Of a stretch of 64,000 nt of DNA, positions 8,497 to 56,549 are shown piece by piece; position 1 is the first letter of the stretch, and each line of letters opens with the position of its first letter. The notes beneath the pieces were generated by a model. It was given only the letters and a program-made list of their open reading frames with translations, was not told the origin of the DNA and did no database searches. Origin of the DNA: Kiritimatiellia bacterium (GTDB taxonomy: Bacteria > Verrucomicrobiota > Kiritimatiellia > RFP12 > UBA1067); the NCBI GenBank assembly GCA_017395505.1, contig JAFPUH010000004.1:7910-71909 (forward strand). Reading direction: 5' to 3'. A program made the translations under genes and the position numbers.

Positions 8497-8526
8497 TTGC
8501 CAAAATGCACTTAAATTTGATAAAAT
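8497..8526 (+). promoter_or_regulatory. sigma70-like promoter candidate, TTGCCA-18-TAAAAT with a TG extension, upstream of giant gene 2
   Basis: TTGCCA at 8497-8502, TG at 8518-8519 and TAAAAT at 8521-8526. It sits in an AT-rich island within the 66-nt gap. Confidence 0.45.
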
Positions 8527-8555
8527 CTACAACGGTGTCTAAAAGAGGAAACAAC

Positions 8556-20780: not shown

Positions 20781-21917
20781 ATGAAGAAGACTATCAAGAA
20801 GGTTCTGGTCGTAAACTCGGGCTCAAGCTCGCTCAAGTACCAGCTGTTCGACATGACAACCGAGACCCGTCTCGCGAAGGGACTCGTGGAGCGCATCGGC
20901 GCGGGCGGCCCCGCCAACCACGCCGAAGCCCTCAAGCAGGTCGTCGCCGACCTCGGTTCGCCCAAGGATATCGACGCCATCGGCCACCGCGTGCTGCACG
21001 GCGCCGAGGTCTTCAAGGATTCCGTCAAGGTCGACGCCAAGGTGCTCGCCAAGCTTGACAAGCTCGTCAAGTTCGGCCCCCTGCACATGCCCGCCAACAT
21101 TGGCGGCATCCGCGCCTGCCAGCAGATCTTCAAGGGCGTGCCCAATGTGGCCGTCTTTGATACGGCCTTCCACCAGACGATGCCCGACTGCGCCGCGATG
21201 TACGCCATCGACCCCAAGTACTACAAGAAGATGGGCATCCGCAAGTACGGCTTCCACGGCACTAGCCACAAGTTCGTCACCCAGGCGGCGGCGGCCTTCC
21301 TCAAGAAGCCCGTCGACAAGGTCAACCTCGTCACCTGCCACCTCGGCAACGGCTCCTCGCTCGCCGCGATCAAGGGCGGCCAGGTGGTCGACACCACGAT
21401 GGGTCTCACCCCGCTCGCCGGTCTTGTGATGGGTACGCGCTGCGGCGACATCGACGCGGCGGCCGTTCTCGCCATAATGGAGGCTGAGAAGAAGACTCCT
21501 GCCGAGATGGACAAGCTCCTCAACAAGCAGTCCGGCCTGCAGGCGCTCTCCGGAGTTCCCGGCGGCGACTGCCGCGACATCGTCGCCAAGGCCGAAAAGG
21601 GCAACAAGGGTGCCGAACTCGCGCTTGAGATGCTCGGCTACCGCACGGCCCTCTACATCGGCGCCTACAACACGATCATCGGCGGCGCGGATGCGATCGT
21701 CATGACGGGCGGCATCGGCGAGAATTCGTCCGAGGCCCGCGAGCGCATCATCGGCCGTCTCGGCGCGCTGGGCATCAAGCTCGACAAGAAGGCCAACGCC
21801 AAGACCCGCGGTGTCGTCGCCGTGCTCTCGACGAAGGATTCCAAGATTCCAGTCGTCGTGCTGCCGACCAACGAAGAGCTTATGATCGCCAAGGATACCG
21901 TCAAGGTTCTCGGCTAA
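20781..21917 (+). CDS. ackA: Acetate kinase
   Basis: N-terminal VLVVNSGSSSLKYQLFDM. Also HRVLHGAE, AVFDTAFHQTMP, YGFHGTSH and IVMTGGIGENS, which are the canonical acetate/propionate kinase motifs. Confidence 0.93.
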   Translation: MKKTIKKVLVVNSGSSSLKYQLFDMTTETRLAKGLVERIGAGGPANHAEALKQVVADLGSPKDIDAIGHRVLHGAEVFKDSVKVDAKVLAKLDKLVKFGPLHMPANIGGIRACQQIFKGVPNVAVFDTAFHQTMPDCAAMYAIDPKYYKKMGIRKYGFHGTSHKFVTQAAAAFLKKPVDKVNLVTCHLGNGSSLAAIKGGQVVDTTMGLTPLAGLVMGTRCGDIDAAAVLAIMEAEKKTPAEMDKLLNKQSGLQALSGVPGGDCRDIVAKAEKGNKGAELALEMLGYRTALYIGAYNTIIGGADAIVMTGGIGENSSEARERIIGRLGALGIKLDKKANAKTRGVVAVLSTKDSKIPVVVLPTNEELMIAKDTVKVLG

Positions 21918-21932
21918 AGGGAGTTTCGTAAA

Positions 21933-22970
21933 ATGGATGCGATCAAGAACATAATCGAAAGGGCTTCGGCCCTCAACGGAACGGTCGTCCTGCCCGAGGG
22001 CATGGATGCCCGCGTCATCACCGCCGCATGCGCCTGCGTCGACCGCAAGATCTGCACGCCTGTCGTGCTCGGCACGCCCGAGGAGATCGCCATCGCCGAG
22101 GCTTCGGCCGGCCTTAGCCTCGCGCCTCGCGGCATCAAGACCATCGACTACACCCAGGGCGACGCCGAACTCGAGTCGGCCTACCTCGAGGCGTGGAACG
22201 CCAAGGAGTCGAAGAAGCCCGCCGAGAAGCAGAAGATCATCGACCTCGCGACCGCCCAGAAGACCCTGCGCACCAAGCGCATCTACTTCGGCGGCATGAT
22301 GGTCAAGCTCGGCAGGGTCAACGGGCTCGTCGCCGGCTCCATCGCCTCGACCGGCGACATGCTTCGCGCGGCGTTCCATACTCTCGGCACGCAGAAGGGC
22401 GTCAAGACGGCCAGCTCGTGCTTCATAATGGATCTCAAGCGCCCGACGCCGTCCGGCGACAGCGTGCTCGCCTTCGGCGACTGCGCCGTCATACCCAACC
22501 CGACCGCCGAGCAGCTCGTGGATATCGGCCTCGCCACCGCGCAGACCTATCGCGACCTGACAGGCAACGAGCCTCGCGTCGCCTATCTCTCGTTCTCCAC
22601 AAAGGGTTCCGCCGCCGGCGATCTGGTCGAGAAGGTTCAGAAGGCCGTCGAGCTCGCCAGGCCACGCTTCGCCGAGGCCGGCATCAAGATGGATGGCGAG
22701 ATGCAGTTCGATGCCGCGATCGTTCCCTCCGTCGGCCAGCTCAAGAATCCGAGCGGCGAGATTCAGGGCAACGCCAACGTGTTCATCTTCCCCGACCTGC
22801 AGGCGGGCAATATCGGCTACAAGATCGCCCAGCGCCTCGGCGAGGCGGATGCGATCGGCCCGAACCTTCAGGGTCTCGCAAAGGCGATGAACGACCTTTC
22901 GCGCGGCTGCTCCGCCGAGGATATCGTCGGCACCATCTGCGTGACGCTTCTTCAGAGCCAGACAAAGTAA
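21933..22970 (+). CDS. pta: Phosphate acetyltransferase
   Basis: VVLPEGMDARVITAA near the N-terminus. C-terminal ANVFIFPDLQAGNIGYKIAQRLG..AIGPNLQGLAKAMNDLSRGCS. It lies immediately downstream of ackA. Confidence 0.9.
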   Translation: MDAIKNIIERASALNGTVVLPEGMDARVITAACACVDRKICTPVVLGTPEEIAIAEASAGLSLAPRGIKTIDYTQGDAELESAYLEAWNAKESKKPAEKQKIIDLATAQKTLRTKRIYFGGMMVKLGRVNGLVAGSIASTGDMLRAAFHTLGTQKGVKTASSCFIMDLKRPTPSGDSVLAFGDCAVIPNPTAEQLVDIGLATAQTYRDLTGNEPRVAYLSFSTKGSAAGDLVEKVQKAVELARPRFAEAGIKMDGEMQFDAAIVPSVGQLKNPSGEIQGNANVFIFPDLQAGNIGYKIAQRLGEADAIGPNLQGLAKAMNDLSRGCSAEDIVGTICVTLLQSQTK

Positions 22971-22980
22971 GGGAGACATC

Positions 22981-23964
22981 GTGACCGGCGAAGAGATGAC
23001 AAAGCGTGCGCGCGAGGTCTTCGACATCGAGATCGAAGGCCTGCGCCGTACTCGCGACTCGCTCGGCGAGACGTTCAACGAGGCTGTCCGCATGATTCTC
23101 GACTGCACGGCCAACGGCGGCATACTCGTCGTCTCCGGCGTAGGCAAGAACCTGCACATAGCCGAGAAGATGAGCGCCATTTTCTCCTCGACCGGCACAC
23201 GCTCCATAGTGCTTAATCCCGTGCAGGCCATGCACGGCGACCTGGGCATGGTCTCGGCCAAGGATATCCTTCTCGCCCTTTCGTTCAGCGGCGAGAGCGA
23301 CGAGGTATTGAAGCTCATACCTGCCATCAGGCGTCACGGGCTCAAGGTAATCTCGATGACCGGCAAGCCCGGCTCGACGCTCGCCCAGATGAGCGACCTG
23401 CATATAGAGATACCCTGCGGCAAGGAGGCCTGTCCGTTCGGCATGGCCCCGACCAACTCTACCACGGCTACGATGGCCATGGGCGACGCCCTCGCCATGG
23501 TGCTGATCGACGCCCAGAAGTTCGCCATCGAGGAGTACGCGATGAACCATCCGGCGGGCGCCATCGGCCGCGCGCTCGTGATGAAGGTCACCGACGTCAT
23601 GCGCCACGGCGAGCGCCTTGCGAAGGTGCTGCCTTCGGCCACCGTGATGGCCACGCTTCTCGCCATGACTGCCGCCAAGGCCGGTTCGGCCGTCATAGCC
23701 GACGAGAGCGGCAAGCTGCTCGGCATATTCACCGACGGCGACTTCCGCCGCATAATGAGCGAAGGCCACGCCGACGTTCTCGAGTCGCCCGTCTCGAAGT
23801 TCATGACGGCCTCGCCGATGTTCGTGCGCAACGATGTCTACGCCGCCGAGCTCCTGAAGATCTTCGAGCGCAAGCGCATCGACGACCTGCCGGTCTGCGA
23901 CGCTGAAGGCCGCGTCGTCGGCCTCGTCGACATTCAGGATCTGCCCAAGATGAAGGTTTTATAA
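22981..23964 (+). CDS. kpsF: KpsF/GutQ-family arabinose-5-phosphate isomerase (SIS domain plus tandem CBS)
   Basis: SIS motifs VVSGVGKNLHIAEKMSAIFSSTGT and LALSFSGESDE. The C-terminal CBS pair includes ..AVIADESGKLLGIFTDGDFRR.. and ..LPVCDAEGRVVGLVDIQDL. GTG 22981 is preceded by GGGAGA; ATG 22996 is an alternative start. Confidence 0.88.
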   Translation: MTGEEMTKRAREVFDIEIEGLRRTRDSLGETFNEAVRMILDCTANGGILVVSGVGKNLHIAEKMSAIFSSTGTRSIVLNPVQAMHGDLGMVSAKDILLALSFSGESDEVLKLIPAIRRHGLKVISMTGKPGSTLAQMSDLHIEIPCGKEACPFGMAPTNSTTATMAMGDALAMVLIDAQKFAIEEYAMNHPAGAIGRALVMKVTDVMRHGERLAKVLPSATVMATLLAMTAAKAGSAVIADESGKLLGIFTDGDFRRIMSEGHADVLESPVSKFMTASPMFVRNDVYAAELLKIFERKRIDDLPVCDAEGRVVGLVDIQDLPKMKVL

Positions 23965-23984
23965 GACAAGAAAGGAACTGCCAA

Positions 23985-24728
23985 ATGAACATCAGGAAAT
24001 TTGTGATTTTTGCGACAGCCGCGCTTGTGGCGGCGTCGGTGGTGGCCGCCCCCACCAAGAGCTCGGCCAAGAAGGGCGGCCGCAGCGCCAAGGCCGCCGC
24101 CGTCGAGGATGAGGAGGAGGGCCCCGACGCCAAGGTCAAGATCGACCAGTTCCCCAGGCTCGGCCGCGCCTCGACCATCTCGTTCCCAGGCATCGATGCA
24201 CCGACGACCCTCAACGGACGCGTCTTCACGAAGCCCCGCCAGTGGATTGTGCTCGAGGCGAAGTATACGACGTTCGACCAGCTCGTCGAGCAGCTGACCT
24301 TCACCTGGCACGTGCTTCTCGACAGCAAGACCGCCACCACCAAGGACAAGGAAGCCCTCGCGAAGCGCGCCCCCTACTCCTACTTCACGCAGACCGTCAC
24401 CTACGTGAACATTCCCAGGGGCAGCCACGCCGCCTCGGTCTGCCTGCATCCCAGCTACTTTGAGCAGTATGGCGAGCCCAAGGCCGTCGGCCTCGTCATC
24501 ACCGACAGCAAGGGCAACGTGCTCGCCGGCGATTGCGAGAGCGAGATACAGAAGATACAGTCCCATCCCAAGTCTCTCGACGACGCGTTCTGGAACAAGA
24601 GCGACATCATGAACGCCAAGGCCAACGCCGACGGCGATCCCATGATCGAGCGTCGTCAGGGTCTGCAGGACCGCAGCAAGACGGTCTGGTCCCTCGTCAA
24701 CCCCAACGACTACGAACTGGTGCAGTAA
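23985..24728 (+). CDS. Secreted hypothetical protein, first gene of the pilus-like cluster (occupies the Amuc_1102 position)
   Basis: Signal-peptide-like N-terminus MNIRKFVIFATAALVAASVVAAP, then a K/A/E-rich linker, then a beta-rich body with no motif I recognise. Its TAA stop overlaps the next ATG (TAATG, 24726-24730). Confidence 0.8.
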   Translation: MNIRKFVIFATAALVAASVVAAPTKSSAKKGGRSAKAAAVEDEEEGPDAKVKIDQFPRLGRASTISFPGIDAPTTLNGRVFTKPRQWIVLEAKYTTFDQLVEQLTFTWHVLLDSKTATTKDKEALAKRAPYSYFTQTVTYVNIPRGSHAASVCLHPSYFEQYGEPKAVGLVITDSKGNVLAGDCESEIQKIQSHPKSLDDAFWNKSDIMNAKANADGDPMIERRQGLQDRSKTVWSLVNPNDYELVQ

Positions 24729-26365
24729 TGGGCAAGAAATTCCTCACACTCGACATCGGCGCCGCCAATGTCGCCCTCGCCGAATATGAAGCCGGCGCCA
24801 AAGGTGCGCTGACGCTTCTCAACTACGGCATCGCTCCGCTGTCGGCTCCGCTCGACTCCGGCGACGCGGCCACGATACTCGTGCCCGCGATAATGGATAT
24901 CGTCCGCGAGAAGGGCATACGCCCCGGCCCAGTGGCCGTCTCGCTCTCGAGCCATATGGTCTTCCCGAGGCTTGCGGCGATAACGCCTGCCGGCGGACCC
25001 GAGAAGTTCGAGCAGATGATCCGCTACGAGATCGAGCAGAACGTGCCGTTCCCGATAGACGAGATGGTCTGCGACCGCCAGGTTCTCGGCGACACCGAGA
25101 ACGGCGACAAGTCTGTCATGATCGTCGCGGCCAAGGTCGAGCAGGTCGAGGCCATAACGAACGCCGTCGCCTCGGCCGGCTTCAGGCCCGAGATGGTCGA
25201 CGTCGCCCCGCTCGCCTTCACAAACGCGGTCGATGCCGCGACCGGCGGCGACGGCAGCTGCAAGATACTTCTCGACATCGGCGCCAAGACCACTTCGCTT
25301 ATCATCGCCGAGGGCGAAAAGCTCTACAACCGCTCCATCCCGATCGGCGGCAACAACATCACGCGCGACATTGCCCAGGCGCTTGGCTGCTCTCCGGCCG
25401 AGGCCGAACAGCTCAAGCGCGAGAAGGGCTACGTCTCGCTCGGCGGCGTCGCCGAGGATGAGGATGCCGTCGCCGACCGCGTGGCCAAGGTGTGCCGCGC
25501 CGTCATGAGCAGGCTGCTCGCCGAGATTTCGCGCAGCGTCAACTTCTATCGCTCGCAGCAGGGCGGCGGAGCCCCCGTCAAGCTCTACATCACCGGCGGC
25601 ACGGCCCTCCTGCCGCAGATCGACACGTTCTTCGCAGACTCGCTGCATATCGAAGTCGAGTTCTTCAATCCGTTCGGCTTCATATCCGTCGGCAGCTCCG
25701 TGGACCAGACGACCCTCGGCTCCGACGGCGCGATGCTCACGCCCACCGCCGGTCTCGCGCTGCATATGGCCGGTGTCGCGAAGTTCTCGATAAACCTTCT
25801 GCCCCCGGCCCTCATAGCCGCTCGCGCCGAGAAGGCCAAGATACCCGTGGTGTGCGCGGCTGGCGGACTCTTTGTCGCGGCTCTCGTCCTCGTGATGCTC
25901 GCCGTCGGCAAGCAGTCTGAGGTCGTGCAGACCACCTATGACGCCGTCGAGTCGAAGCTCAACGTCCTTAAGGGCTACGAGACGAAGATGAAGGCCGCCG
26001 AGAAGGAGGTCGATGAGGCCAAGGCTTCGGCCGACGCATTGGCGCGACTCATGGGCTCCCGCTTCAATACGTGCGCAAGGCTCGCCATCGTGCGCAAGAC
26101 CCTCACGCCCGGCTACATGTGGGTCGAACGCTGGGAACCCGGCCGCATCACGATACGCGGCTGGAAGGACATCCTCGACGACTTCGAGAAGATCGACGCC
26201 GCAAGCAACGGCGGCAAGCAGCGTACGGCCTCCGAGATCGTGGCCGCGCGTCTCAAGAGCGAGCCGCTGATCGTAGATCCCGACAGCGTCAGGATATCCG
26301 ACATGACCACGATCGGCAGGAACGGATCCATCCAACAATTCACAGTGGAGCTTAAGTTCAAATGA
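24728..26365 (+). CDS. PilM-PilN fusion protein: an actin-like ATPase-fold pilus assembly protein fused to a PilN-like bitopic membrane domain
   Basis: PilM motifs: LTLDIGAANVALAEY, LLDIGAKTTSLIIAEGEKLYNRSIPIGGNNITRDIAQALGCSPAEAEQLKREKG, LYITGGTALLPQID..FFNPF. The PilN-like part follows: FSINLLPP, the TM segment IPVVCAAGGLFVAALVLVMLAV, a coiled coil, and a C-terminal domain. The track ORF start at 24533 lies inside the upstream gene, so the true start is ATG 24728. Confidence 0.88.
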   Translation: MGKKFLTLDIGAANVALAEYEAGAKGALTLLNYGIAPLSAPLDSGDAATILVPAIMDIVREKGIRPGPVAVSLSSHMVFPRLAAITPAGGPEKFEQMIRYEIEQNVPFPIDEMVCDRQVLGDTENGDKSVMIVAAKVEQVEAITNAVASAGFRPEMVDVAPLAFTNAVDAATGGDGSCKILLDIGAKTTSLIIAEGEKLYNRSIPIGGNNITRDIAQALGCSPAEAEQLKREKGYVSLGGVAEDEDAVADRVAKVCRAVMSRLLAEISRSVNFYRSQQGGGAPVKLYITGGTALLPQIDTFFADSLHIEVEFFNPFGFISVGSSVDQTTLGSDGAMLTPTAGLALHMAGVAKFSINLLPPALIAARAEKAKIPVVCAAGGLFVAALVLVMLAVGKQSEVVQTTYDAVESKLNVLKGYETKMKAAEKEVDEAKASADALARLMGSRFNTCARLAIVRKTLTPGYMWVERWEPGRITIRGWKDILDDFEKIDAASNGGKQRTASEIVAARLKSEPLIVDPDSVRISDMTTIGRNGSIQQFTVELKFK

Positions 26366-27369
26366 ACAAGTCGAAGATAGTTCTCGCCGCCGTCGGCGGA
26401 GTGACGCTCGTCGCCTCGCTCGCCTTGGCGTATTTCATCTGGAGCGCGATGTCCGAGAGGTCGGAGCGTCTTGACGAGCTCGCCGGCGCCGAGCAGTCGC
26501 TCATCAACATGATGAAGCTGCCGGTCAACCCCAGCCCAGAAGCCATCAAGGCCTATCAGGCGAACGCCGAGACCTACGACAACTGGAAGGACGACGCCAA
26601 GAAGCTCGTCACTACCGGCGACATGATCTTCGAGCCCACGACTCCGCCCGCCCTCAAGGCGTTCATGGTCGAGGACGCCCGCCGCCTTTCGTCCCTGCCG
26701 GGCCGCACCGACGGCGTTATCGTGCGCCCCGAGTTCGCGTTCGGCTTCAAGGAGTTCGTTCTCGACGGCAACATGCCGGCCGAGGCCGATCTCGCCAAGA
26801 TACAGCGCGAGTGGTACGACATGTCGGTCGTCGTCGAGACCATGTCTAAGAGCGGCGTCATCGAGATAACCGATCTCACGCTCATCGGCGACGCGCCCCA
26901 GCCGGCCGCCGAGCAGCAGCCGGCCGCCGGCAACCGCCGCCAGCGAAAGGGCGCCAAGCCCGCCGCAAAGGCGAAGGCCGCCGAGCAGTGTGAAGGCCCC
27001 GCCGTCACCCGCATGCGCGTCGAGTTCCGCGCCATGCCCCCGGCGCTCGTCGCCGTGGCCAACAGCCTCATGATGTCGCGCAGGTTCATCGTCGTCGACG
27101 ACCTTACTTTCTCGCGCGAGAGGGATGAACTCTCCGAGAAGCTTGGCGGCGATCCCAAGAAGGCCGCCGAGGCTCAGTCGAGCAGGGGCGGCCGCCGCGG
27201 TCGCCGCGGTCGTCAGGAGGAAGCCGAGGAGCCCGCCGAGAACGAGGCGCTGTCGGGCATAGTCACCGATCCGATGATGGCTCCCGCGCTCAAGGTTTCA
27301 ATGTTGATATCGGTCTACGACTTCCGTTCGCTCGAGGCCGACAAGACCGAGACGGAGGAGCAGAAATGA
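26362..27369 (+). CDS. Bitopic membrane protein in the PilO position; Amuc_1100-like by my recollection of that sequence
   Basis: ATGA overlap with the upstream gene. N-terminal TM segment IVLAAVGGVTLVASLALAYFIW, then a coiled coil. TTPPALKAFMVEDARRL, FGFKEF and MRVEFRAMPPALVAVANSLMMSRRFIVVDDLTFSRER parallel the segments I remember from Amuc_1100 (TTPTAFQNELKTFRD; LEIAFQGDRESVLKAMNAITGMQDYLFTVNSIRIRNER). The tails are low-complexity and basic/acidic (GNRRQRKGAKPAAKAKA; GGRRGRRGRQEEAEEPAENE). Confidence 0.6.
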   Translation: MNKSKIVLAAVGGVTLVASLALAYFIWSAMSERSERLDELAGAEQSLINMMKLPVNPSPEAIKAYQANAETYDNWKDDAKKLVTTGDMIFEPTTPPALKAFMVEDARRLSSLPGRTDGVIVRPEFAFGFKEFVLDGNMPAEADLAKIQREWYDMSVVVETMSKSGVIEITDLTLIGDAPQPAAEQQPAAGNRRQRKGAKPAAKAKAAEQCEGPAVTRMRVEFRAMPPALVAVANSLMMSRRFIVVDDLTFSRERDELSEKLGGDPKKAAEAQSSRGGRRGRRGRQEEAEEPAENEALSGIVTDPMMAPALKVSMLISVYDFRSLEADKTETEEQK

Positions 27370-28469
27370 AACAGGGCAACGGCAATTTCTTTACGCAGCA
27401 CTACGAGTGGCTCGCCGCCGCGGTCGCGATAGTCGCGCTCGCCCTCGCGGCGCTCTTCTTCGTGAAGGCCATGGGTGAGGATGGCGAAGCCAGCGCCGCC
27501 GAGAAGGTGCGCCGCATAGACGCCCGCAGGAGCGACGCCAATGTCGTCACCCAGCCCGACATGTCCCTCTACCAGATTCTCATGCGCAACACCCAGGCGC
27601 CTACGTCCGTCGGCGAGCTGAACCCCGTCGGCTACAGCTTCCTCGCGAGCGGCCGCCGCGTCTTCTGCGCCCTGCCTGACTGCCACGCGCCGATTCCGCC
27701 GGACTCCAAGCAGTGCCCCGTCTGCAAGCGTGACCAGCCAGAGGAGGAGAAGCCTGAGGTCGTGCTGGATGCCGACGACGATGGACTCCCCGACGAGTGG
27801 GAGCGCCGCTTCGGTCTGAGCCCGAACAACTCCGGCGACGCCGATGAAGATCTCGACGGCGACGGCTTCACCAACCGCGAAGAGTATGAGGCCGGCACTG
27901 ATCCGAGCGACAGGCACAGCCACCCCGACTACCTCGATTCCCTCAAGCTAAAGCTGCCCCTCAAGCAGACCACGCTGCCGTTCTACCTCAGGTCCTACAT
28001 GAAGACGCCCAACGGCATGAAGCTCGAGTTCTTCAATCCGAGCGAGAGGAACGACTACGGCACCCGCGGCAAGGCGTATTCGGTATTCGTCGACCAGGAT
28101 GTCGGCGCCACCGGCTTCGTCGCCAAGTCGTTCGAGCAGAAGAAGAGCGTCGCCAAGATCGCCGGCGGCGGCGGCGCCACGCGCGAAGTCGATGCGTCGT
28201 TCGCCATGGTCGAGCGCAAGAGCGACGGCAAGCAGATAAAGGTCGTCGTCTCCGGCGCCAAGCCCAAGCGCGCGCCCGTCGATGTGCAGGCGGTGCTCGT
28301 CTACGAGCGCGGCGAAGTAAAGGAGTTTACGGTCGTTCCCGCCGACAAGATCAACCTCAACGGCAGCGAGTATGTCGTGAAGGAGATCAAGTCTGTCGGC
28401 AAGGGCGCGTCGGTGACTCTAGTGGATTCGACCGGCAAGGAGCGGACACTCGAAGCACTTGAACAATAA
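27366..28469 (+). CDS. PilP-like lipoprotein/anchor protein with an inserted CxxC..CxxC zinc ribbon and two TSP3-like Ca loops (Amuc_1099 position)
   Basis: ATGA overlap with the upstream gene. TM segment WLAAAVAIVALALAALFFV. Zinc ribbon CALPDCHAPIPPDSKQCPVCKR (27667-27732). TSP3-like loops DADDDGLPDEWERRFGLSPNN and DEDLDGDGFTNREEYEAGTDPSD. C-terminal beta-domain: ..VLVYERGEVKEFTVVPADKINLNGSEYVVKEIKSVGKGASVTLVDSTGKERTL, which has the PilP-like pattern. Confidence 0.6.
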   Translation: MKQGNGNFFTQHYEWLAAAVAIVALALAALFFVKAMGEDGEASAAEKVRRIDARRSDANVVTQPDMSLYQILMRNTQAPTSVGELNPVGYSFLASGRRVFCALPDCHAPIPPDSKQCPVCKRDQPEEEKPEVVLDADDDGLPDEWERRFGLSPNNSGDADEDLDGDGFTNREEYEAGTDPSDRHSHPDYLDSLKLKLPLKQTTLPFYLRSYMKTPNGMKLEFFNPSERNDYGTRGKAYSVFVDQDVGATGFVAKSFEQKKSVAKIAGGGGATREVDASFAMVERKSDGKQIKVVVSGAKPKRAPVDVQAVLVYERGEVKEFTVVPADKINLNGSEYVVKEIKSVGKGASVTLVDSTGKERTLEALEQ

Positions 28470-28487
28470 GAAAATTTAGAGTATAAT
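28459..28487 (+). promoter_or_regulatory. sigma70-like promoter candidate, TTGAAC-17-TATAAT, directly upstream of the secretin gene
   Basis: TTGAAC at 28459-28464 (inside the last codons of the PilP-like gene), a 17-nt spacer, and TATAAT at 28482-28487. Confidence 0.5.
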
Positions 28488-28511
28488 ACACCCAGAATAC
28501 CTCCAAGGAGC

Positions 28512-31500
28512 ATGAGATCGAATATGACGAATCTAAAGACAATCGCCGCCGTCAGCGCGGCCATGGCCGTCATCGCCTGCGGATCACTTGCATTCGCGCA
28601 AGACGATCTTGACGATCTTCTGAAAGACCTCGAAAGCGACCTTGCGGCCGAGACCGCTGGCGTCGCGGCCGTAGAGGAGGCGCCCGAGGCCGAGCCTGAA
28701 GCGGAGCCCGAGGTTGCTCCCGAGGTCGAGCCCGAAGAAGCTCCTGAGGTCGAGCCCGAGGCCGATGCCGATGCCGATGCCGAAGAGCCGGCTGAAGAGC
28801 CCGCCGACGAGGAAGAGCCTGTAGCGGCTGAAGAGCCGGCTGCCGAGGAGCCTACGGAAGAGCCTGCCGATGACGCGGAGCCCGAAGTCGAGCCTGAGGC
28901 CGATGCCGAAGAGCCGGCTGAAGAGCCCGCCGACGAGGAAGAGCCTGTAGCGGCTGAAGAGCCCGCTGACGAGGAGCCCGCGGAGGAACCAGCTGACGAA
29001 GAGCCTGCGCCTGAGGTTGAAGAGCCCGCCCCTGCTGACGAGGAGCCCGCGCCCGAAACCGAAGAGCCCGCTGAGACGGAGGAGCCTGCTGTCGAGGAGG
29101 CGACAGAAGAGCCCACCGCCGAAGAGCCTGCTCCTGAAGCTGAAGAGCCTGCTCCTGCTGACGAGGAGCCCGCGTCCGGAACCGAAGAGCCCGCGCCTGC
29201 CGCAGAAGAGCCTGCCGAGGTTACGGCCGAGCAGGTCGACGAGGCGATTTCGCTTCTCGCAGACATTGCCGCCTCCGAGGTTGGCGGCGAAGGCGAAACG
29301 CCCGCCGCTGTAGAGCCAGCTGCTGCGAAGCCCGCTCCTGCGAAGCCCGCAGTTGTCGACCCTGACGCCGAGCTTCTCGCCAACATCACAGCTACCGAAA
29401 AGCTGCGCCGCAACGCTTATGACGCGCAGGCCAAGCGTGAGGTCGTTGCCGCCCGCGCCGCTCTCGCCGCCGGCGACAACCTTGAGGCCTCGAAGCGCTA
29501 TGCGCTGGCCCTCAAGCTCATGAACGACAGCCCGGCCACCAAGAAGCTTCGCCGCGAGTGCGAGCAGGGCATCGCCGAGAGCCTCTACCGCGCCGCTATG
29601 GAAGAGGAGCGCCTCGGCCGCAGGACCAACGCCATCGAGGTCATGAACCGCGCCCTGGCGATGCGCCATCCCAAGGCCCGCAAGCAGCTTGAGACCTGGA
29701 ACACTTCGGAGGATCCCAACGCCAACAAGAAGGCGCTCTCCGACATCAAGCACCGCCGCAACGAAGACGACTACAAGGCCAAGCGCGCCAAGAACCAGCG
29801 CCACCTTAAGCGTGCCCGCCAGCTTCTCGCCGTCAAGGAGATAGATGAGGCTCTCGACGAGTGCGAGCTTGTGTTGGTGAACGACCCCTACAACCAGGAG
29901 GCCATCCGTCTCCGCAAGGCCATCCAGAAGAAGCGCGCCGTCATTCTCGGCCAGGAGTTCCAGGTGACCCGCGAGGCGATGATCGCCGATGTCGACCGCG
30001 CATGGCGCCCGGTCTACGCGCCGAACGCCCGCGAGATCGATGAGGCTTCGTCCTCTACCGTCAGGCGTTCGATCGGGGAAGACCCCGAGCGCACGATCGA
30101 GCAGTCGATCCGCCAGAGGATGAAGGAGATGATCCTGCCGCAGATCTCGTTCAAGCCGCCGGCTACGATCATCGACGCCATCGACTTCTTCCGCACCGCT
30201 TCGAAGGACTACGACCGCCCCGACATTCCGCTTGAGGAGCGCGGCTTCAACTTCGTCATCAAGTCCGATACGCCCCTCTACTCCAAGGCTCCCGCGCCCG
30301 AGGTTGAGGATGCCGACGACTTCTCCGACAGCGGCGATGAAGAGGAGGTTCCCGCCGGCGTCGACGGCGTGCCCGTCATCCAGACGATCACCGCCACGAA
30401 CATTCCTTTCGACGAGGCTCTGCAGCTCGTCTGCGAGTCGGTCAAGTACAAGTACACCGTCAAGGGCCGCATCGTCATGATCATGCCCGAGGATGAGACG
30501 ACCGAAGAGATGCTCATCCGCAGCTATCCCGTCATGGCGACGTTCATGGAGAAGATGGACTCCGTCTCCAGTGAAATCAGCGACAGCGGTTTCGGCGTCA
30601 GCTCCAGCCGCAAGAGCAAGAGCGACGACGAGCCTACGATGGAGGACAAGCTGAAGAACGTATTTGAGCAGCTCGGCGTCAGCTGGCCCGAAGGCAGCAA
30701 GATCTTCTACATGTCGGCCACCGGCAAGCTGCGCGTCAAGAACACCGAGAAGAACCTGAGCGAAATCGAGAAGGCGCTCGTCGAACTCAACGCCGAGCAG
30801 AAGCTCGTCGAGATCGAGGCCCGCTTCGTCGAAGTCGGTCAGGACGACCTCAACTCTCTCGGCTTCGAATGGATTCTCAATAGCGATTACACCGCTGCCG
30901 GCGGCGGGTGGTTGGCCAGGAAGCTCGGCATCAAGGAAGGCGGCTACGTCAAGTCTTCCGGAACCTCCACAACCAACGCTGGTAGCTCCGAAGCGCCGAC
31001 CACATCCGCGTCTGGCTCTACGATCAACGGATCTTGGGCTAAACCGTCGAATGCCAACAAGTCCAACCTCGGCAACTTCGGCATAAACGCGATGGGCGGT
31101 ACAGATGCCACATACGGCAACGGCAACCGCTACCTCTCCACCGACAGCAACCATATTTCGGGCAACGGCAAGTCGACAAACGACCAGTTCATGCGCGTCA
31201 ACGCGTTCCTCGGCTCCGCCGACCTGTCGATGATTCTCCACATGCTCTCGCAGCGCAGCGATACGGACCTTCTCTCCGCGCCTAAGGTGCTGACCCGTCC
31301 GAGCAACCGCGCCGTCATCCGCGTCGTCACCGAATACATCTATCCGCAGGACTACACGGTTCAGCTGACCTCCGGTTCCAGCTCGTCGTCGTCGTCCAGC
31401 TCTGGTTCCAGTTCGGTTCTCGCGATCGTCGAGCCTGAGAACTTCACGATGCGCGAGGTCGGCGTGATTCTCGACGTCACCCCGAACCTCACCGACGCCG

Positions 31501-32087
31501 GCAACTTGATCGAGCTCGAGCTCAAGACCGAGATCGTCGACGAACCCACCTGGAAGAACTACGGCATGAGAATTCCGTTCACCGGCAACAGCTCGCTCCA
31601 GAACTTCCAGGGTATCGGCGAGATCTTCTCCGGCCTTGCCGAGTCTATCACAGCTCTCGGAACTGGCGTGAGCAGCACACTGAAGGAGTGGATCATTCAG
31701 TCTGAGGTTAATGCTGCCGAGGAAGCGCTTGCGGGCCTGACTTCCTCCACCGCTGACAACATGACCTACTATGAAGCGCCGATGGAGCAGCCGTTCTTCC
31801 ATATGCGCAAGATCGAGTCCACAGTGTCGATCTATCCCGGTGCGACGATCGTCATGGGCGGTCTCATCACCGAGACCCGCAGGGCCATGGACGACAAGAT
31901 TCCGTTCCTCGGCGACCTGCCGTTCATCGGGCGTCTCTTCCGCAGCCATGCCGAGGAGACGAAGAAGAAGAACCTGCTCATATTCGTCACGACGCGCCTT
32001 GTCGACGTTCGCGGCCGCGAGGTCTCGGTCGGCGAGGGGGAAGTTGTGTCTGACGCTCAGGTGAGGGCTGCCCCAGAGCAGCAGTGA
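28512..32087 (+). CDS. Secretin (GspD/PilQ family), 1,191 aa, with an acidic Pro/Glu repeat of about 190 aa and a TPR-like helical N-terminal region
   Basis: Signal peptide ..KTIAAVSAAMAVIACGSLAFAQDD. The secretin C-domain includes DLLSAPKVLTRPSNRAVIRVV and KIPFLGDLPFIGRLFRS...KKNLLIFVTTRLVD. AAGGAG lies upstream of ATG 28512. Confidence 0.9.
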   Translation: MRSNMTNLKTIAAVSAAMAVIACGSLAFAQDDLDDLLKDLESDLAAETAGVAAVEEAPEAEPEAEPEVAPEVEPEEAPEVEPEADADADAEEPAEEPADEEEPVAAEEPAAEEPTEEPADDAEPEVEPEADAEEPAEEPADEEEPVAAEEPADEEPAEEPADEEPAPEVEEPAPADEEPAPETEEPAETEEPAVEEATEEPTAEEPAPEAEEPAPADEEPASGTEEPAPAAEEPAEVTAEQVDEAISLLADIAASEVGGEGETPAAVEPAAAKPAPAKPAVVDPDAELLANITATEKLRRNAYDAQAKREVVAARAALAAGDNLEASKRYALALKLMNDSPATKKLRRECEQGIAESLYRAAMEEERLGRRTNAIEVMNRALAMRHPKARKQLETWNTSEDPNANKKALSDIKHRRNEDDYKAKRAKNQRHLKRARQLLAVKEIDEALDECELVLVNDPYNQEAIRLRKAIQKKRAVILGQEFQVTREAMIADVDRAWRPVYAPNAREIDEASSSTVRRSIGEDPERTIEQSIRQRMKEMILPQISFKPPATIIDAIDFFRTASKDYDRPDIPLEERGFNFVIKSDTPLYSKAPAPEVEDADDFSDSGDEEEVPAGVDGVPVIQTITATNIPFDEALQLVCESVKYKYTVKGRIVMIMPEDETTEEMLIRSYPVMATFMEKMDSVSSEISDSGFGVSSSRKSKSDDEPTMEDKLKNVFEQLGVSWPEGSKIFYMSATGKLRVKNTEKNLSEIEKALVELNAEQKLVEIEARFVEVGQDDLNSLGFEWILNSDYTAAGGGWLARKLGIKEGGYVKSSGTSTTNAGSSEAPTTSASGSTINGSWAKPSNANKSNLGNFGINAMGGTDATYGNGNRYLSTDSNHISGNGKSTNDQFMRVNAFLGSADLSMILHMLSQRSDTDLLSAPKVLTRPSNRAVIRVVTEYIYPQDYTVQLTSGSSSSSSSSSGSSSVLAIVEPENFTMREVGVILDVTPNLTDAGNLIELELKTEIVDEPTWKNYGMRIPFTGNSSLQNFQGIGEIFSGLAESITALGTGVSSTLKEWIIQSEVNAAEEALAGLTSSTADNMTYYEAPMEQPFFHMRKIESTVSIYPGATIVMGGLITETRRAMDDKIPFLGDLPFIGRLFRSHAEETKKKNLLIFVTTRLVDVRGREVSVGEGEVVSDAQVRAAPEQQ
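28672..29230 (+). repeat. In-frame acidic (E/P/A/D) tandem repeat inside the secretin gene; it includes an exact 62-bp duplication (28776-28837 = 28902-28963, period 126 bp)
   Basis: The string gatgccgaagagccggctgaagagcccgccgacgaggaagagcctgtagcggctgaagagcc occurs twice. Degenerate GAAGAGCC(C/T/G)GC units run throughout. A second near-repeat pairs about 29019-29070 with about 29143-29193. Confidence 0.9.
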
Positions 32088-32629
32088 CCGGAGTGAAGAA
32101 AAGATTACGTGTCGCGCTCACCGGCGGCATAGCATGCGGCAAGTCTCTTGCCGCATGTTTCTTGCGTGAATTGGGCTACCCTACGATCGACGCCGACGAC
32201 CTCGCCCATGCGCTGATCTCGCCAGAAGAGAGAAAGGCGCTCGCGAAGACCGTCTTCCGCGACCCGGAGGCGAGGCGGGCGCTCGAGGCGAGGCTCCACC
32301 CGCAGATACGTCGCGCCCTGCACGAGGCTTTCGAGGGGAACGGAGCCGAACTTCCTCTCATTGAGGTTATACCTCTTCTCTTCGAGGTGCATTGGAACGG
32401 CGATTATGATATAATATGCTGCGTCAAGTCCGAAAGGGCGACTCAGCTCTCGAGGATGCAGACGACGCGCGGCCACACGCGCGAAGAGGCCGAGGAGCGC
32501 ATCGGCGCGCAGATGCCGGTTGCCGAGAAGGCCGAGAAATCCCACTATGTGATCGCGAACGACGGGTCTTGCGAAGACCTTCGCAAAGCGGTCTCGGAAT
32601 TCGCGAGATGGCTCGCGAAGCAGCAATAG
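32084..32629 (+). CDS. coaE: Dephospho-CoA kinase
   Basis: P-loop ALTGGIACGKS. The size (about 180 aa) and ..LHPQIRRAL.. and ..EVIPLLFE.. fit the CoaE pattern. GTG 32084 overlaps the secretin TGA; GTG 32093 is an alternative start. Confidence 0.8.
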   Translation: MTGVKKRLRVALTGGIACGKSLAACFLRELGYPTIDADDLAHALISPEERKALAKTVFRDPEARRALEARLHPQIRRALHEAFEGNGAELPLIEVIPLLFEVHWNGDYDIICCVKSERATQLSRMQTTRGHTREEAEERIGAQMPVAEKAEKSHYVIANDGSCEDLRKAVSEFARWLAKQQ

Positions 32630-32641
32630 CAAGGAGACGAC

Positions 32642-34186
32642 ATGGCAGATGAACTGGACGTGTTCGCGGGCGCGATGCCTGCGAAGAGCGCGAGCGGCGC
32701 ACAGCCGCCGCAGCAGCCCAAGCCGGCTGCAAAGAAGTTCTTTGGCGGGCGCAAGCCTTTTCAGCGGCATGCGCAGGGCAAGCAGAACAATTCCCCGATA
32801 CGGGGCTCGAACGGCGAGGAGTCTGTGAACCCTCTGCTGAACGCCCCTCTTCCGGCCGAGCAGAGGTCGCAGGAGCCCGAGGCGCCTGCCAACCCCAACC
32901 GCAACCCCGAATTGCCCGAATACAGGCTTGCGGATATCCAGACCTGGCCCGCGCCTGTCATAGTAGAGCGCATGATGCCCGGCGCCGATCCCGAAGAGCT
33001 CGGCACCTACCGCAAGCACGAGCTTATCTTCGCCGCGATACGAACCTACCTCAAGAACGGCGGAGCGGTGCTCGCTTCCGGATGCCTCGAGATCATGCGC
33101 GAGGGCCACGGCTTTCTGAGATCGGCCAAGAACAACTTCCTGGCCTGCCCCGAGGATGTCTTCGTCACCCAGCAGCAGATTCGACGCCACGCCCTCAGGA
33201 CGGGCGACGTCGTAGAAGGGCCGATTCGCGATCCGAGGGACCGCGACCGCTTCTTCTGCCTCGGCGGCGCCACGGCCGTGAACGGCAAGGAGCCTTCGGT
33301 CGCCGCCCGCGTGATTCATTTCGAGAACCTCACGCCTACCTTCCCGACGCGCCGCATCATACTCGAGACGACGCCGACTGAGTTCTCCACCAGGGTCATA
33401 GACCTCTTCACCCCGATCGGCTTCGGGCAGCGCGGCCTCATAGTCGCCCCTCCGAGGGTCGGCAAGACGGTGCTTCTTCAGAAGATGGCGAACGCCATAA
33501 CGGCCAACCACCCCGATGCCATCCTGATAATCCTGCTGGTCGACGAGCGCCCCGAGGAAGTCACCGACATGCAGCGCAACACCAAGGCGATGGTGCTCTC
33601 GTCGACGTTCGACGAGGAGCCCCAGCATCACGTCAGCGTCGCCGAGATGGTGATCGAGATGTCGAAGCGCCAGGTCGAGAACGGCAAGGATGTCGTAATA
33701 CTCCTCGACTCCATCACCCGCCTGGCCCGCGCCTACAATACCGTCCAGCCGCATTCCGGCAAGATCCTGACGGGCGGCGTCGACGCCCTCGCCCTGCACA
33801 GGCCGAAGCGCTTCTTCGGCGCGGCTCGCAACATCGAGGGCGGCGGCTCGCTGACGATCATCGCCACCGGCCTCGTCGACACCGGCTCGCGCATGGACGA
33901 GGTCATCTTCGAGGAGTTCAAGGGCACCGGCAACATGGAGCTTGTCCTAGACCGCGGCCTTGCCGACAAGAGGATATTCCCGGCGATCGACATCGACAAG
34001 TCCGGCACCCGCAAGGAGGACCTTCTGCTTGATCCGGTCGAGCTCGAGAAGACGTGGGGCCTGAGGCGCATACTGGCCGACGTCGGCCCCGAGTCTGCGA
34101 TGAAGAGCGTGCTCAACTCGCTGAAGAAGACGAAGTCCAATCCCGAGTTCATACTTGCGCTCGACCTCAAGAACATAGTCCGCTGA
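32642..34186 (+). CDS. rho: Transcription termination factor Rho with a low-complexity N-terminal extension
   Basis: [14 protein letters not shown] and [16 protein letters not shown] (the CSD-like RNA-binding region). Walker [45 protein letters not shown] and [19 protein letters not shown]. Confidence 0.93.
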
Positions 34187-36927
34187 TGGATATAGAGATC
34201 AAGAACGCAAGGATGCACAACCTGCGCGGAATCGACGTGACGATTCCGCGCAACTCCTTGACCGTCGTAACCGGGCTCTCCGGCAGCGGCAAGTCAACCC
34301 TTGCGTTCGACACGCTCTACGCCGAGGGGCAGCGCCGGTATGTCGAGTCGCTCTCGGCCTACGCCAGGCAGTTCCTCGACCGCTTGCGCAAGCCTGAGGT
34401 CGACAAGATCGAAGGCCTCAGCCCTGCGATATCCATCGAGCAGCACACCACGGGCGGCAACCCGAGGTCGATAGTCGCAACGGTCACAGAGATCCACGAC
34501 TACCTCAGGGTGCTCTACGGCTCGGTGGCTACGGCGCACTGTCCGCAATGCGGCAGAGAGGTTCGCCGCCAGTCGGCCGAGCAGATCGTAGACTCGATAA
34601 TGAAGGGCGAAGGGCGCATCACCATCTACGCGCCTGTCGTGAAGGGCAAGAAGGGCCGCCACGAGGAGACCCTCGCCGCGATGAGGCGCAATGGCTTTGC
34701 GAGGGTTCGCATCGACGGCGAGACGCACACCATCGACGAGCTGCCCGAGCTGGACAAGAAGAGGGCCCACAACATTGACATTGTCGTGGACCGCCTCGTG
34801 CTGCCTTGCGACAGGACGCGCCTCACGGATTCCGTCGAACTGGCGCTCAAGCAGGGCTCGGGCATCATCTACGTCAACGATACGACCTACTCCGAGCTCA
34901 ACGCCTGCGTGCACTGCGGCATATCGTTCGACGAGCTGAAGCCGAGGTCGTTCTCCTTCAACTCGCCGTTCGGCGCCTGTCCGACCTGCTCCGGCCTCGG
35001 CCAGCTGTACTACTTCGACGAGGAGCTTGTGGTGCCCGACAGGTCGTTGCCTCTGAGGGAGTGCATACATCCCTGGCGGCGCGCCGGCCACAACGCCATA
35101 ATGTACTACAACGCGCTTCTCGAGCAGATCGCCAAGCAGTACCGCGTCGATCTCGAGACGCCTTACGAAAAGCTGCCCGCGAAGTTCCGGCACGATCTGA
35201 TGCATGGGTTCAAGGATGACCTCGTGCTGCCGTGGCGCCGCGAGGACCGTCCGTTCGAAGGCGTGTTGGCTACTCTCCAGCGCCGTCTCGACGAGGCCGA
35301 AGACGACGAGACGCGCCAGAAGTGGGAGGCCTACCAGAGCTTCAAGACCTGCCCAGACTGCCATGGCACCCGCCTGCGGCCGGAGTCCCGCGCAGCCACC
35401 GTGGCCGGCAGGACGATCGTCGAGGTGATGGCGATGCCGATCAGGGCGGCCCTTGCCTTCTTCGAGTCGGCCCCGCGCTTCGCCGGCATGGATGACGTCA
35501 TGAAGGAGATCGTGCGCCGGCTGAGGTTCCTGCTCGACGTCGGGCTCGACTACCTCACCCTCGACCGCGCTTCCGCAACGCTGTCGGGCGGCGAGATGCA
35601 GAGGATTCGCCTCGCCACGCAGATCGGCAGCGGACTGACCGGTGTCCTGTATGTGCTCGACGAGCCGACGATCGGCCTGCACCCCCGCGACAACGAGCGC
35701 CTCATATCCACTCTCAAGGGACTTCGCGACCGCGGCAACACCGTCGTCATAGTGGAGCACGACGAGGAGATGATGCGATCAGCCGACTGGCTTGTGGATC
35801 TCGGACCAGGCGCAGGACGGGAGGGCGGCCGCCTGATGTACCAGGGTCCGTTCCCCGGGCTGCTCGAAGCCAAGTCGCTCACCGCCGACTATCTGAACGG
35901 ACGGAAGAAAGTTGGCGTTCCGCTCCCGGCCTCCAACCCCAACTCCAAACCCCACCTGACCATCTCGGGCTGCACGGAGCACAATCTCAAGAACATTTCC
36001 GTCAAGATTCCGGTAGGCTCGTTCACTGTCGTAACCGGCGTCTCCGGCAGCGGAAAATCCACCCTTGTCGACGAAACGCTGAAGCGTGCGCTGATGCGCC
36101 ACTTTTACAGGTCGAAGGCAGTCCCCGGCAAGTACAGGCGGCTCACCGGGCTTGAGCACATCGACAAGGTGATCGAGATCGACCAGTCGCCGATAGGGCG
36201 CACACCCCGCTCCAACCCGGCCACCTACGTCGGCTTCTTCTCCGACATACGCGAGCTGTTCGCCCAGACCGAGGCGGCGAAGGCGCGCGGCTACACTGCG
36301 GGACGCTTCTCGTTCAACGTAAAGGGCGGGCGCTGCGAGGTGTGCGGCGGCGACGGCCTCAGAAAGCTAGAGATGAGCTTCCTGCCGGACGTGTATGTGA
36401 CGTGCGAGCAGTGCGGCGGCCGACGCTTCAACGCCGAGACCCTCGAGGTCACCTACGGCGGCAGGAACATCGCCGACGTGCTGGATATGACTGTCTCCGA
36501 GGCGTGCGAGTTCTTCGCGAAGGTGCCGTCGCTGGCCCGCAAGCTGAAGACGCTCGACGAAGTCGGCCTCGGCTACATTGCGCTCGGACAGTCCGCCACG
36601 ACCCTTTCGGGCGGCGAGGCACAGCGCATAAAGCTCGCAACCGAACTGTCTCGCCGCGCTACGGGCCGCACCATGTATCTGCTGGACGAGCCGACCACCG
36701 GGCTTCACTTCGACGATGTCGCCAAGCTCATGAGGCTTCTCATGAGACTTCGCGACCAGGGCAACACCATCGTAGTCATCGAGCACAACGTCGACGTCAT
36801 GCGGTGTGCCGACTGGATCATCGATCTCGGCCCCGGCGGCGGCGACGCCGGCGGCAACCTGGTATGCCAGGGCACGGTCGCGGATGTCCGCGCCTGCAAA
36901 GAGTCAGTAACAGGGAGGTTCCTGTGA
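34186..36927 (+). CDS. uvrA: Excinuclease ABC subunit A
   Basis: [18 protein letters not shown].., GLSGSGKSTLAFDTLYAEGQRRYVESLS, the zinc modules CPQCG and CPTCSGLG, LSGGEMQRIRLA, and a second ABC half with GVSGSGKSTL and LSGGEAQRIKLA. ATG 34186 overlaps the rho TGA (TGATG). The track start at 34054 lies inside rho. Confidence 0.95.
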   Translation: MDIEIKNARMHNLRGIDVTIPRNSLTVVTGLSGSGKSTLAFDTLYAEGQRRYVESLSAYARQFLDRLRKPEVDKIEGLSPAISIEQHTTGGNPRSIVATVTEIHDYLRVLYGSVATAHCPQCGREVRRQSAEQIVDSIMKGEGRITIYAPVVKGKKGRHEETLAAMRRNGFARVRIDGETHTIDELPELDKKRAHNIDIVVDRLVLPCDRTRLTDSVELALKQGSGIIYVNDTTYSELNACVHCGISFDELKPRSFSFNSPFGACPTCSGLGQLYYFDEELVVPDRSLPLRECIHPWRRAGHNAIMYYNALLEQIAKQYRVDLETPYEKLPAKFRHDLMHGFKDDLVLPWRREDRPFEGVLATLQRRLDEAEDDETRQKWEAYQSFKTCPDCHGTRLRPESRAATVAGRTIVEVMAMPIRAALAFFESAPRFAGMDDVMKEIVRRLRFLLDVGLDYLTLDRASATLSGGEMQRIRLATQIGSGLTGVLYVLDEPTIGLHPRDNERLISTLKGLRDRGNTVVIVEHDEEMMRSADWLVDLGPGAGREGGRLMYQGPFPGLLEAKSLTADYLNGRKKVGVPLPASNPNSKPHLTISGCTEHNLKNISVKIPVGSFTVVTGVSGSGKSTLVDETLKRALMRHFYRSKAVPGKYRRLTGLEHIDKVIEIDQSPIGRTPRSNPATYVGFFSDIRELFAQTEAAKARGYTAGRFSFNVKGGRCEVCGGDGLRKLEMSFLPDVYVTCEQCGGRRFNAETLEVTYGGRNIADVLDMTVSEACEFFAKVPSLARKLKTLDEVGLGYIALGQSATTLSGGEAQRIKLATELSRRATGRTMYLLDEPTTGLHFDDVAKLMRLLMRLRDQGNTIVVIEHNVDVMRCADWIIDLGPGGGDAGGNLVCQGTVADVRACKESVTGRFL

Positions 36928-41810: not shown

Positions 41811-41837
41811 AAACTTAAACAAGAAAGGATCCATAAA

Positions 41838-51438: not shown

Positions 51439-51480
51439 TACGGCGGCATAAGGCTTTAACCTTGGAAAGGTCCAGATAAC

Positions 51481-56539: not shown

Positions 56540-56549
56540 GCGAACCTAG

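Follow-up and report, generated by a model that had tools for sequence, protein, structure and literature searches.

What kind of envelope machine do five tightly packed genes in a Kiritimatiellae genome encode, and does it resemble one already known from other Verrucomicrobiota? The genes lie co-directionally at positions 23985-32087 on the forward strand of a 64-kb window (the whole stretch of DNA analysed, to which all coordinates refer). A first-pass annotation had placed their open reading frames (ORFs) correctly and had likened them to the Amuc_1102-Amuc_1098 cluster of Akkermansia muciniphila. That cluster was reportedly described in 2017 as coding for abundant envelope proteins, and its name MUL2, for mucin utilization locus, is said to come from Davey (2023). 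According to our analyses, ORF1 to ORF5 represent a divergent Kiritimatiellae version of the Akkermansia MUL2 cluster together with its secretin, and would encode a complex that spans the envelope and shares its ancestry with type IV pilus (T4P) and type II secretion system (T2SS) machines. We put the probability of this reading at about 75%.

Relationship to the Akkermansia cluster

The comparison with the NCBIfam models gave the cognate Amuc_ model as the top model for each of the five proteins. As a second comparator we used an A. muciniphila locus from a gut metagenome (L017), whose Amuc_1100 is 100% identical to a sequence verified against the PDB entries 6LAD and 6KNY. This locus contains the genes for Amuc_1102, Amuc_1101 (612 amino acids, aa), Amuc_1100, Amuc_1099 and Amuc_1098 (907 aa), followed by coaE and rho. 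Gene number, strand and order are the same in the window, where the secretin gene is likewise followed by coaE, encoding dephospho-CoA kinase (32084-32629, Pfam CoaE), and rho (32642-34186, Pfam Rho_RNA_bind), both on the forward strand. In BLASTP against this locus the cognate proteins were the best matches in colinear order, with the exception of ORF3, for which nothing significant was obtained. Since the Rho protein of the window is only 45% identical to the A. muciniphila Rho at the same position, the conserved order and flank span a deep split.

Precomputed Pfam labels name the same families for ORF1 (PF28178, Amuc_1102) and ORF3 (PF28028, Amuc_1100). The curated NCBIfam cut-offs are 55 bits for Amuc_1102_rel, 650 for Amuc_1101_fam, 180 for Amuc_1100_fam, 50 for Amuc_1099_fam and 750 for Amuc_1098_fam, and as an equivalog only ORF4 exceeds its value. 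Judged by these comparisons, the five proteins appear as clear but distant homologues of the Akkermansia set. The match proposed in the first-pass annotation was thus borne out by the models, by the shared order with its coaE-rho flank and by the fold of ORF3. The opposite outcome, a lack of Akkermansia homology combined with orthology to a canonical pilMNOPQ operon, was not found, the cognate Amuc_ models being the best in all cases.

The PilM-PilN fusion and the Amuc_1100-like protein

ORF2 (24728-26365) encodes a protein of 545 aa, counted from an ATG within a longer TTG-started ORF, and belongs to the Amuc_1101 (MUL2B) family. Its layout comprises an actin-like PilM domain (residues ~1-350), the motif INLLP and a transmembrane (TM) segment at ~369-400, followed by a coiled coil and by the core in the periplasm. 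The protein is recognised by Pfam PilM_2 (E 4.8e-39), by the general NCBIfam pilM model TIGR01175 (157 bits, above the cut-off of 133) and, in the PDB, by PilM 3JC8_M (E 1.4e-35); an exact copy is annotated as PilM in GenBank. For the C-terminal part, a profile search delivered PilN of Myxococcus xanthus (3JC8_N, E 0.0055) as top PDB match, with an alignment that begins at INLLP and continues through the TM segment and the coiled coil. A weak match to GspL was also obtained (E 5.6e-4, 19 bits against an NCBIfam cut-off of 65). From its domains ORF2 is a true PilM-PilN fusion, as had been proposed from its translation, and it has a GspL-like architecture.

The match of ORF2 to Amuc_1101_fam reaches E 1.5e-111 over residues 3-471 (374 bits), and BLASTP against Amuc_1101 showed 35% identity over 373 aa (E 6e-63). 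With the Amuc_1101 homologues of other Akkermansia species the alignment covers the full length. Because Amuc_1101 has the same layout, the fusion is a trait of the family and not a peculiarity of the window. In the cell, ORF2 would provide a cytoplasmic actin-like platform that is tethered via one TM helix to the periplasmic PilN-like core.

ORF3 (26362-27369) encodes a bitopic protein of 335 aa, with an N-terminal membrane anchor according to simple hydropathy. The homology to Amuc_1100 was shown by NCBIfam, hhalign and Foldseek, since BLASTP as well as sequence and profile searches of the PDB failed to detect it. The NCBIfam model Amuc_1100_fam matched with E 1.7e-15 (57 bits), and a 25-member clade profile aligned to Amuc_1100 over 250 colinear columns (hhalign probability 72%, E 3.3e-5). 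The AlphaFold2 model of ORF3 has a mean predicted local distance difference test (pLDDT) score of 73.6. When it was compared with the PDB by Foldseek, the top 10 matches were all Amuc_1100 structures (6KNY, 6LAF, 6LAD; E 1.5e-7 to 8e-6; TM-score normalised to the target 0.66-0.77), followed by the PilO structures 2RJZ and 3JC8_O. Two low-complexity basic/acidic segments of the model, residues 178-210 and 273-299, have a pLDDT below 50. GspM was matched weakly (E 2e-3, 17.8 bits against an NCBIfam cut-off of 60), as was T2SSM_b in a Pfam copy that does not hold PF28028.

Among its neighbours ORF3 is the fastest-evolving member: identities across relatives are 34-62%, compared with 52-79% for ORF2 and 88-96% for Pta. 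At E <= 1e-3 the clade profile retrieved 1262 representative clusters from a set of 1.84 billion proteins, so the family is a large one. With its PilO/GspM-like fold, ORF3 would be the bitopic partner that pairs with the PilN-like core of ORF2 in the periplasm.

The fourth protein, the secretin and the first protein

ORF4 (27366-28469, 367 aa) is the one member that passes the cut-off of its family model (Amuc_1099_fam, E 1.5e-22, 80.6 bits), and in BLASTP its TSP3 region was 40% identical to Amuc_1099 (E 1.7e-6). It has an N-terminal TM anchor and not a lipobox, two TSP3 repeats of the calcium-binding type and an all-beta region at the C-terminus; one TSP3 repeat and the beta-rich C-terminus are common to ORF4 and Amuc_1099. 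Pfam reports TSP3_bac (7.9e-6) and Zn_Ribbon_1 (0.037). The AlphaFold2 model (pLDDT 75) places beta strands at 193-364. Four cysteines (C101, C106, C117 and C120, encoded at 27666-27728) form a zinc-ribbon-like Cys4 insert that is invariant in 32 homologues and absent from the Amuc_1099 sequence. If the N-terminal helix is the membrane anchor, this segment should be periplasmic, and from the sequence the cysteines could either bind zinc or form two disulfides. Some homologues of ORF4 carry the NCBI name 'RING-HC finger protein'.

The earlier designation of ORF4 as PilP-like had to be dropped. With the full-length model, Foldseek found nothing at E <= 0.001 and hence neither PilP nor GspC, and a profile search of the PDB gave no PilP or GspC, just marginal RING and TSP-like matches. 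What the designation rests on is therefore the position of the gene. As a membrane-anchored protein, ORF4 would stand where a connector to the outer-membrane channel is expected.

This channel would be formed by ORF5 (28512-32087, 1191 aa), a secretin with TPR repeats that would be linked to ORF4. Amuc_1098_fam matches residues 285-1171 over model positions 19-803 of 805 (E 5e-127, 425 bits), and BLASTP against Amuc_1098 aligned 915 colinear residues that start in the TPR-like region and extend as far as the secretin domain (26% identity, E 2e-77). Pfam Secretin was found with E 2.7e-30, and PDB matches to GspD and PilQ cover residues 1077-1185. The TPR matches are weak in ORF5 and strong in Amuc_1098. 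Scores on the classical models are low, with 131 bits on PilQ TIGR02515 (cut-off 284) and 124 bits on GspD (cut-off 351), and no AMIN, STN or Secretin_N domain was found by Pfam.

Between residues 31 and 290, ORF5 consists of 32% Glu, 24% Ala and 17% Pro and has a net charge of -101. This polyanionic region is encoded by tandem-repeat DNA (28682-29220, forward strand) with units of 126 and 123 nt and shorter sub-periods. It is also polymorphic in length: an allele from another sample (L001, 12151-15600) encodes 1149 aa and is 42 aa shorter, whereas the window and L002 both encode 1191 aa, and the remainder of the cluster is ~99% identical between these loci. Amuc_1098 of the comparator locus has no such region. 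The view that every component is atypical therefore needs to be divided. The fusion, the TSP3 repeat and the TPR-secretin depart from the classical type IVa pilus but are standard for the family; the Cys4 insert is absent from Amuc_1099 and the acidic repeat from Amuc_1098.

A signal peptide with a conserved Cys was predicted for ORF5 by simple hydropathy. The Cys stands in a lipobox-like context (28512-28601), VIAC here, LVSC or VIAC in relatives and AASC in Amuc_1098 (L017, 12075-12170), and it is followed by an AFAQ-type signal-peptidase I site. From these residues the secretin might be lipidated, that is, a liposecretin. Its start is possibly the second ATG at 28524 and not that at 28512, as the secretins of relatives open with MTNLKK or MTNMKK and the additional residues MRSN are not conserved.

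ORF1 (23985-24728, 247 aa) probably belongs to the Amuc_1102 (MUL2A) family and is annotated as a hypothetical protein in GenBank (MBQ4384435.1, locus tag II823_00750). Here the match to Amuc_1102_rel is weak (E 1.2e-3, 18.5 bits), and in BLASTP a stretch of 86 aa was 27% identical to Amuc_1102 (E 0.003). When the related loci were combined into a clade profile, hhalign aligned it to Amuc_1102 with a probability of 86.6% (E 4.4e-6). In a Pfam copy that does not contain PF28178, ORF1 had no match. The hydrophobic N-terminus (residues 2-25) is a signal peptide according to simple hydropathy and is of the Sec type, not of the prepilin type. ORF1 would thus be exported by Sec, as an accessory or fibre-like subunit. 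A Sec signal on the first protein and a Cys in the signal-peptide region of the secretin are also found in the Akkermansia cluster.

Taken alone, several of these features would suit an ordinary type IVa pilus (T4aP), in which the genes would encode the alignment subcomplex and PilQ of a retractile pilus that serves adhesion, twitching or the uptake of DNA, with pilBCD and pilA elsewhere in the genome. The window shares with the PilMNOPQ sets of M. xanthus (3JC8) and Pseudomonas aeruginosa an actin-like PilM that matches PilM structures and passes the pilM cut-off, the succession of INLLP, TM segment and coiled coil, a PilO-like fold in ORF3 and a secretin as the last component, which scores marginally better on PilQ than on GspD. 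The separation of pilMNOPQ from pilABCD, as in Pseudomonas, would also be normal. We nevertheless regard a T4aP as unlikely. PilM and PilN are one polypeptide here, neither PilP homology nor a lipoprotein connector was found, and an additional Amuc_1102-like gene stands at the head of the operon. The secretin remains far below the PilQ cut-off and has no detected AMIN, N0/N1, Secretin_N or STN domain, and all proteins score better on the Amuc_ models than on the classical ones.

Junctions, flanks and related loci

The genes of the cluster are joined as the first-pass annotation had described. ORF1 and ORF2 have one base in common (cagTAATGggc), ORF2/ORF3 and ORF3/ORF4 are joined by ATGA overlaps, and 42 nt (28470-28511) separate ORF4 from the secretin gene, whereas the Akkermansia genes lie 29-71 nt apart. 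The promoter-like site that had been noted before the secretin gene was also found: TTGAAC-17-TATAAT at 28459-28487 on the forward strand reaches from the end of ORF4 into the 42-nt gap. It is a putative promoter by sigma-70-like consensus match only (10/12) and is the top site of this kind in 23700-32700, a region in which five such sites were seen and 1.2 were expected from shuffled sequences. The coding signature GC3 > GC1 > GC2 is present in all five ORFs, as in the window generally.

Because the coaE start overlaps the stop of the secretin gene (GTGA at 32084), position 32087 is no clear end of the co-directional array. In the stretch 20781-36927 a single strand carries everything, beginning with the giant proteins and proceeding via ackA, pta and kdsD, ORF1 to ORF5, coaE and rho to uvrA, with gaps of 0-42 nt. 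Terminator-like sites in this region do not exceed chance expectation, so that the sequence marks no clear boundaries of transcription units. Scans of the window with Rfam and for tRNAs gave no matches.

Relatives of the locus were collected by a scan of species-representative genomes with a subset of nine ORF3 sequences, which reached close gut relatives only and not Akkermansia. Nine related loci were obtained, all from rumen or gut metagenome-assembled genomes (MAGs) labelled Lentisphaerae, Verrucomicrobia or Kiritimatiellae, and contigs matching the window itself come from ruminant gastrointestinal metagenomes. The window's own proteins have exact copies in a MAG labelled Kiritimatiellae bacterium (GenBank MBQ4384432 to MBQ4384464); on these grounds, and with Rho only 45% identical, an origin in the Akkermansiaceae was rejected. 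The arrangement ackA-pta-kdsD-ORF1 to ORF5 is kept in the nine loci, as are coaE and rho where the contig is long enough, and the ATGA overlap of ORF2 and ORF3 occurs in 9/9. In Akkermansia, by contrast, the upstream flank is formed by a peptidase gene and lgt.

In six of the nine related MAGs, a gene for a signal-peptide protein of 866 to >1800 aa stands directly between the secretin gene and coaE (L010, 15440-18040; L012, 15559-20310; L013, 15562-21036; L015, 15832-20961; L011, 15507-20159; L016, 15400-19863), and the four of these large proteins that were scanned contain Listeria-Bacteroides (Flg_new) repeats. In the window itself, two giant Laminin_G_3/TSP3 proteins fill the first 20 kb (3-8489, >2828 aa; 8505-20750, 4081 aa), upstream of ackA. 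Such large secreted neighbours could be cargo or co-functioning adhesins, or their linkage could be coincidental.

If they are cargo, the cluster would be a T2SS-like exporter, an analogue of GspL-M-C-D by which large adhesins or proteins that bind glycans would reach the cell surface. The position of the large proteins after the secretin gene in the relatives, and of the two giants 3 kb upstream of the cluster in the window, would suit such a function. The fusion protein also corresponds to GspL, a single protein with a cytoplasmic actin-like domain, one TM segment and a periplasmic ferredoxin-like domain, and ORF3 corresponds to GspM, the PilO-like partner; both models are matched, at the weak scores given above. 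However, these scores and that of GspD are far below the cut-offs, GspC is not matched, and neither the HR and PDZ domains of GspC nor the N-domains of GspD were found in the cluster proteins by Pfam or PDB profile searches. Classical T2SS operons hold gspE, gspF and the pseudopilin genes together, whereas no such genes are adjacent to the cluster in the window. A large-protein neighbour is missing downstream of the secretin gene both in the window and in Akkermansia, and ackA, pta and kdsD stand between the window's giants and the cluster. A T2SS-like exporter therefore appears quite improbable, more so than a T4aP.

Partner genes and possible function

A MUL2-type complex of T4P/T2SS ancestry would be expected to have energising partners, and the first-pass annotation had pointed out that the window holds no gene for an ATPase, a platform protein or a prepilin. 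A motif scan and the Pfam labels agree with this: neither a prepilin-type N-terminus nor a GspE-type Walker A motif was found in the six frames of the window, and none of the genes called between ~16 kb and a point ~6 kb beyond the end of the window carries a T2SSE, T2SSF or N_methyl label. In P. aeruginosa, pilMNOPQ is separate from pilABCD. As a location of pilMNOPQ apart from the ATPase and pilin genes is ordinary, the absence of partners from 64 kb says little. The machine would be powered by an ATPase, a platform protein and (pseudo)pilins whose genes lie at a distance in the genome, and the retention of the PilM domain speaks for such an ATPase on the cytoplasmic side.

The same absence could be taken literally, with scaffold and channel working as an import pore without any ATPase. 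The locus lies among housekeeping genes, adjoining coaE-rho in Akkermansia as well as in Kiritimatiellae, and no ATPase or pilin gene was seen near it in any locus examined. Against an ATPase-free pore stands the conserved cytoplasmic PilM domain, which, going by the biology of PilM and GspL, implies a cytoplasmic motor partner. Other pilin-like genes of A. muciniphila, which lie elsewhere in its genome, matter for colonisation (bioRxiv 10.64898/2025.12.30.696933), and open secretins weaken the outer-membrane barrier (PMC13392014). We give this explanation the smallest chance of all; each of the three rivals is less well supported than the reading as a MUL2-type cluster.

By analogy with A. 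muciniphila, a MUL2-type machine in a gut bacterium would most likely serve the capture or uptake of host or other complex glycans. The window contains a sialic-acid utilization cluster at 50308-58390, 18 kb downstream of the five-gene locus. Its products are a BNR sialidase-like protein, a fusion of NanM with an SSF transporter (847 aa), a symporter for Na/Ala, a lyase that is DHDPS/NanA-like and a GlcNAc 2-epimerase. Genes for a galactokinase and an MFS transporter are found at 40512-43010. Together these genes fit a lifestyle of host-glycan foraging, and the sialidase, the sialic-acid transporter, the NanA-like lyase and the epimerase are consistent with a glycan-related role of the locus.

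Several results weigh against our assignment to MUL2. Four of the five NCBIfam matches lie under the curated equivalog cut-offs, so that functional equivalence with Akkermansia is not established. For ORF3, pairwise BLASTP with the verified Amuc_1100 was not significant (E 2.1), and PDB searches with phmmer and with hmmsearch of the clade profile missed the Amuc_1100 entries altogether. ORF1 had no PDB match, neither by phmmer nor by hmmsearch of the clade alignment against PDB sequences. The connector role of ORF4 is drawn from position and topology, because similarity to PilP or GspC is absent. No gene for an ATPase, platform protein, peptidase or pilin was located within the ~80 kb covered, and the mucin-acquisition phenotype is one of A. 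muciniphila only, as related in papers that cite the original work.

The locus in the light of published work on MUL2

The cluster had been singled out as the most plausible under-described system of the window, which does not hold for the family: it is already named, has a published mucin-acquisition phenotype and has been the subject of a synteny survey. A recent preprint reports that MUL2 is important for mucin acquisition and kept in all Akkermansia species, and the same work likens Amuc_1100 to PilO/PilN (bioRxiv 10.64898/2025.12.30.696933). In the survey (ISME J 2026, PMC13174399), MUL2 consists of amuc_1099, amuc_1100, amuc_1101 (a PilM protein named MUL2B) as well as amuc_1102 (MUL2A, which resembles an archaeal pilin, PDB 7DSZ). 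Its synteny was found in 266 of 352 non-muciniphila Akkermansiaceae genomes; conservation is frequent in other Verrucomicrobiales, less so in Chthoniobacterales and absent in Methylacidiphilales. The synteny figure also names a secretion channel protein, dephospho-CoA kinase and rho, as are found around the locus of the window. The main text of this survey mentions neither Kiritimatiellae nor Lentisphaerae. Our literature search gave no paper joining Kiritimatiell* with Amuc_1100, and a search for Kiritimatiell* with type IV pili and secretin gave nothing on Kiritimatiellae among the matches listed.

Compared with Akkermansia MUL2, the window thus carries the same PilM-PilN fusion, Amuc_1100 fold, TSP3 in the fourth protein and TPR region before the secretin domain, in a different class, Kiritimatiellae and not Verrucomicrobiae. 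Sequence identity is very low, with 26-35% for ORF2 and ORF5 and no significant value for ORF3, and ORF4 has the Cys4 insert and a second TSP3 repeat, both lacking in Amuc_1099, as the 260-aa polyanionic repeat is lacking in Amuc_1098. What is new here is the Kiritimatiellae host, the Cys4 insert in an Amuc_1099-like protein and the length-polymorphic polyanionic repeat of the secretin. These are increments, which widen the known range of MUL2 and do not define a new class of system.

In a more far-reaching scenario, MUL2 with its secretin is an ancient envelope machine that has been passed on vertically within the Verrucomicrobiota. It would have stood beside coaE-rho since the split of Verrucomicrobiae and Kiritimatiellae and would serve mainly for glycan capture or import, unlike a pilus or secretion system of the classical kind. 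The Kiritimatiellae additions, an invariant Cys4 knuckle with calcium-binding TSP3 repeats in the connector and, on the secretin, a polyanionic skirt of variable length, would then be adaptations to substrates of the gut or to pressure from host and phage. As a whole, with the additions included, this scenario is speculative and has a limited chance of being correct.

Amuc_1100 and its neighbours are intensively studied as host-active proteins of Akkermansia, and MUL2 is tied to mucin foraging. The presence of the whole locus with its coaE-rho flank in Kiritimatiellae of the ruminant gut supports the view of an old, conserved machine of the phylum and not of a speciality of Akkermansia. The very divergent sequences expose what is invariant in it: PilM and PilN are fused and include INLLP, Amuc_1100 has a fold like that of PilO, the motifs TSP3 and HPDY are kept, and the secretin is of the TPR type. 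They also support Amuc_1100 as a membrane-anchored component of an alignment complex and not as a pilin.

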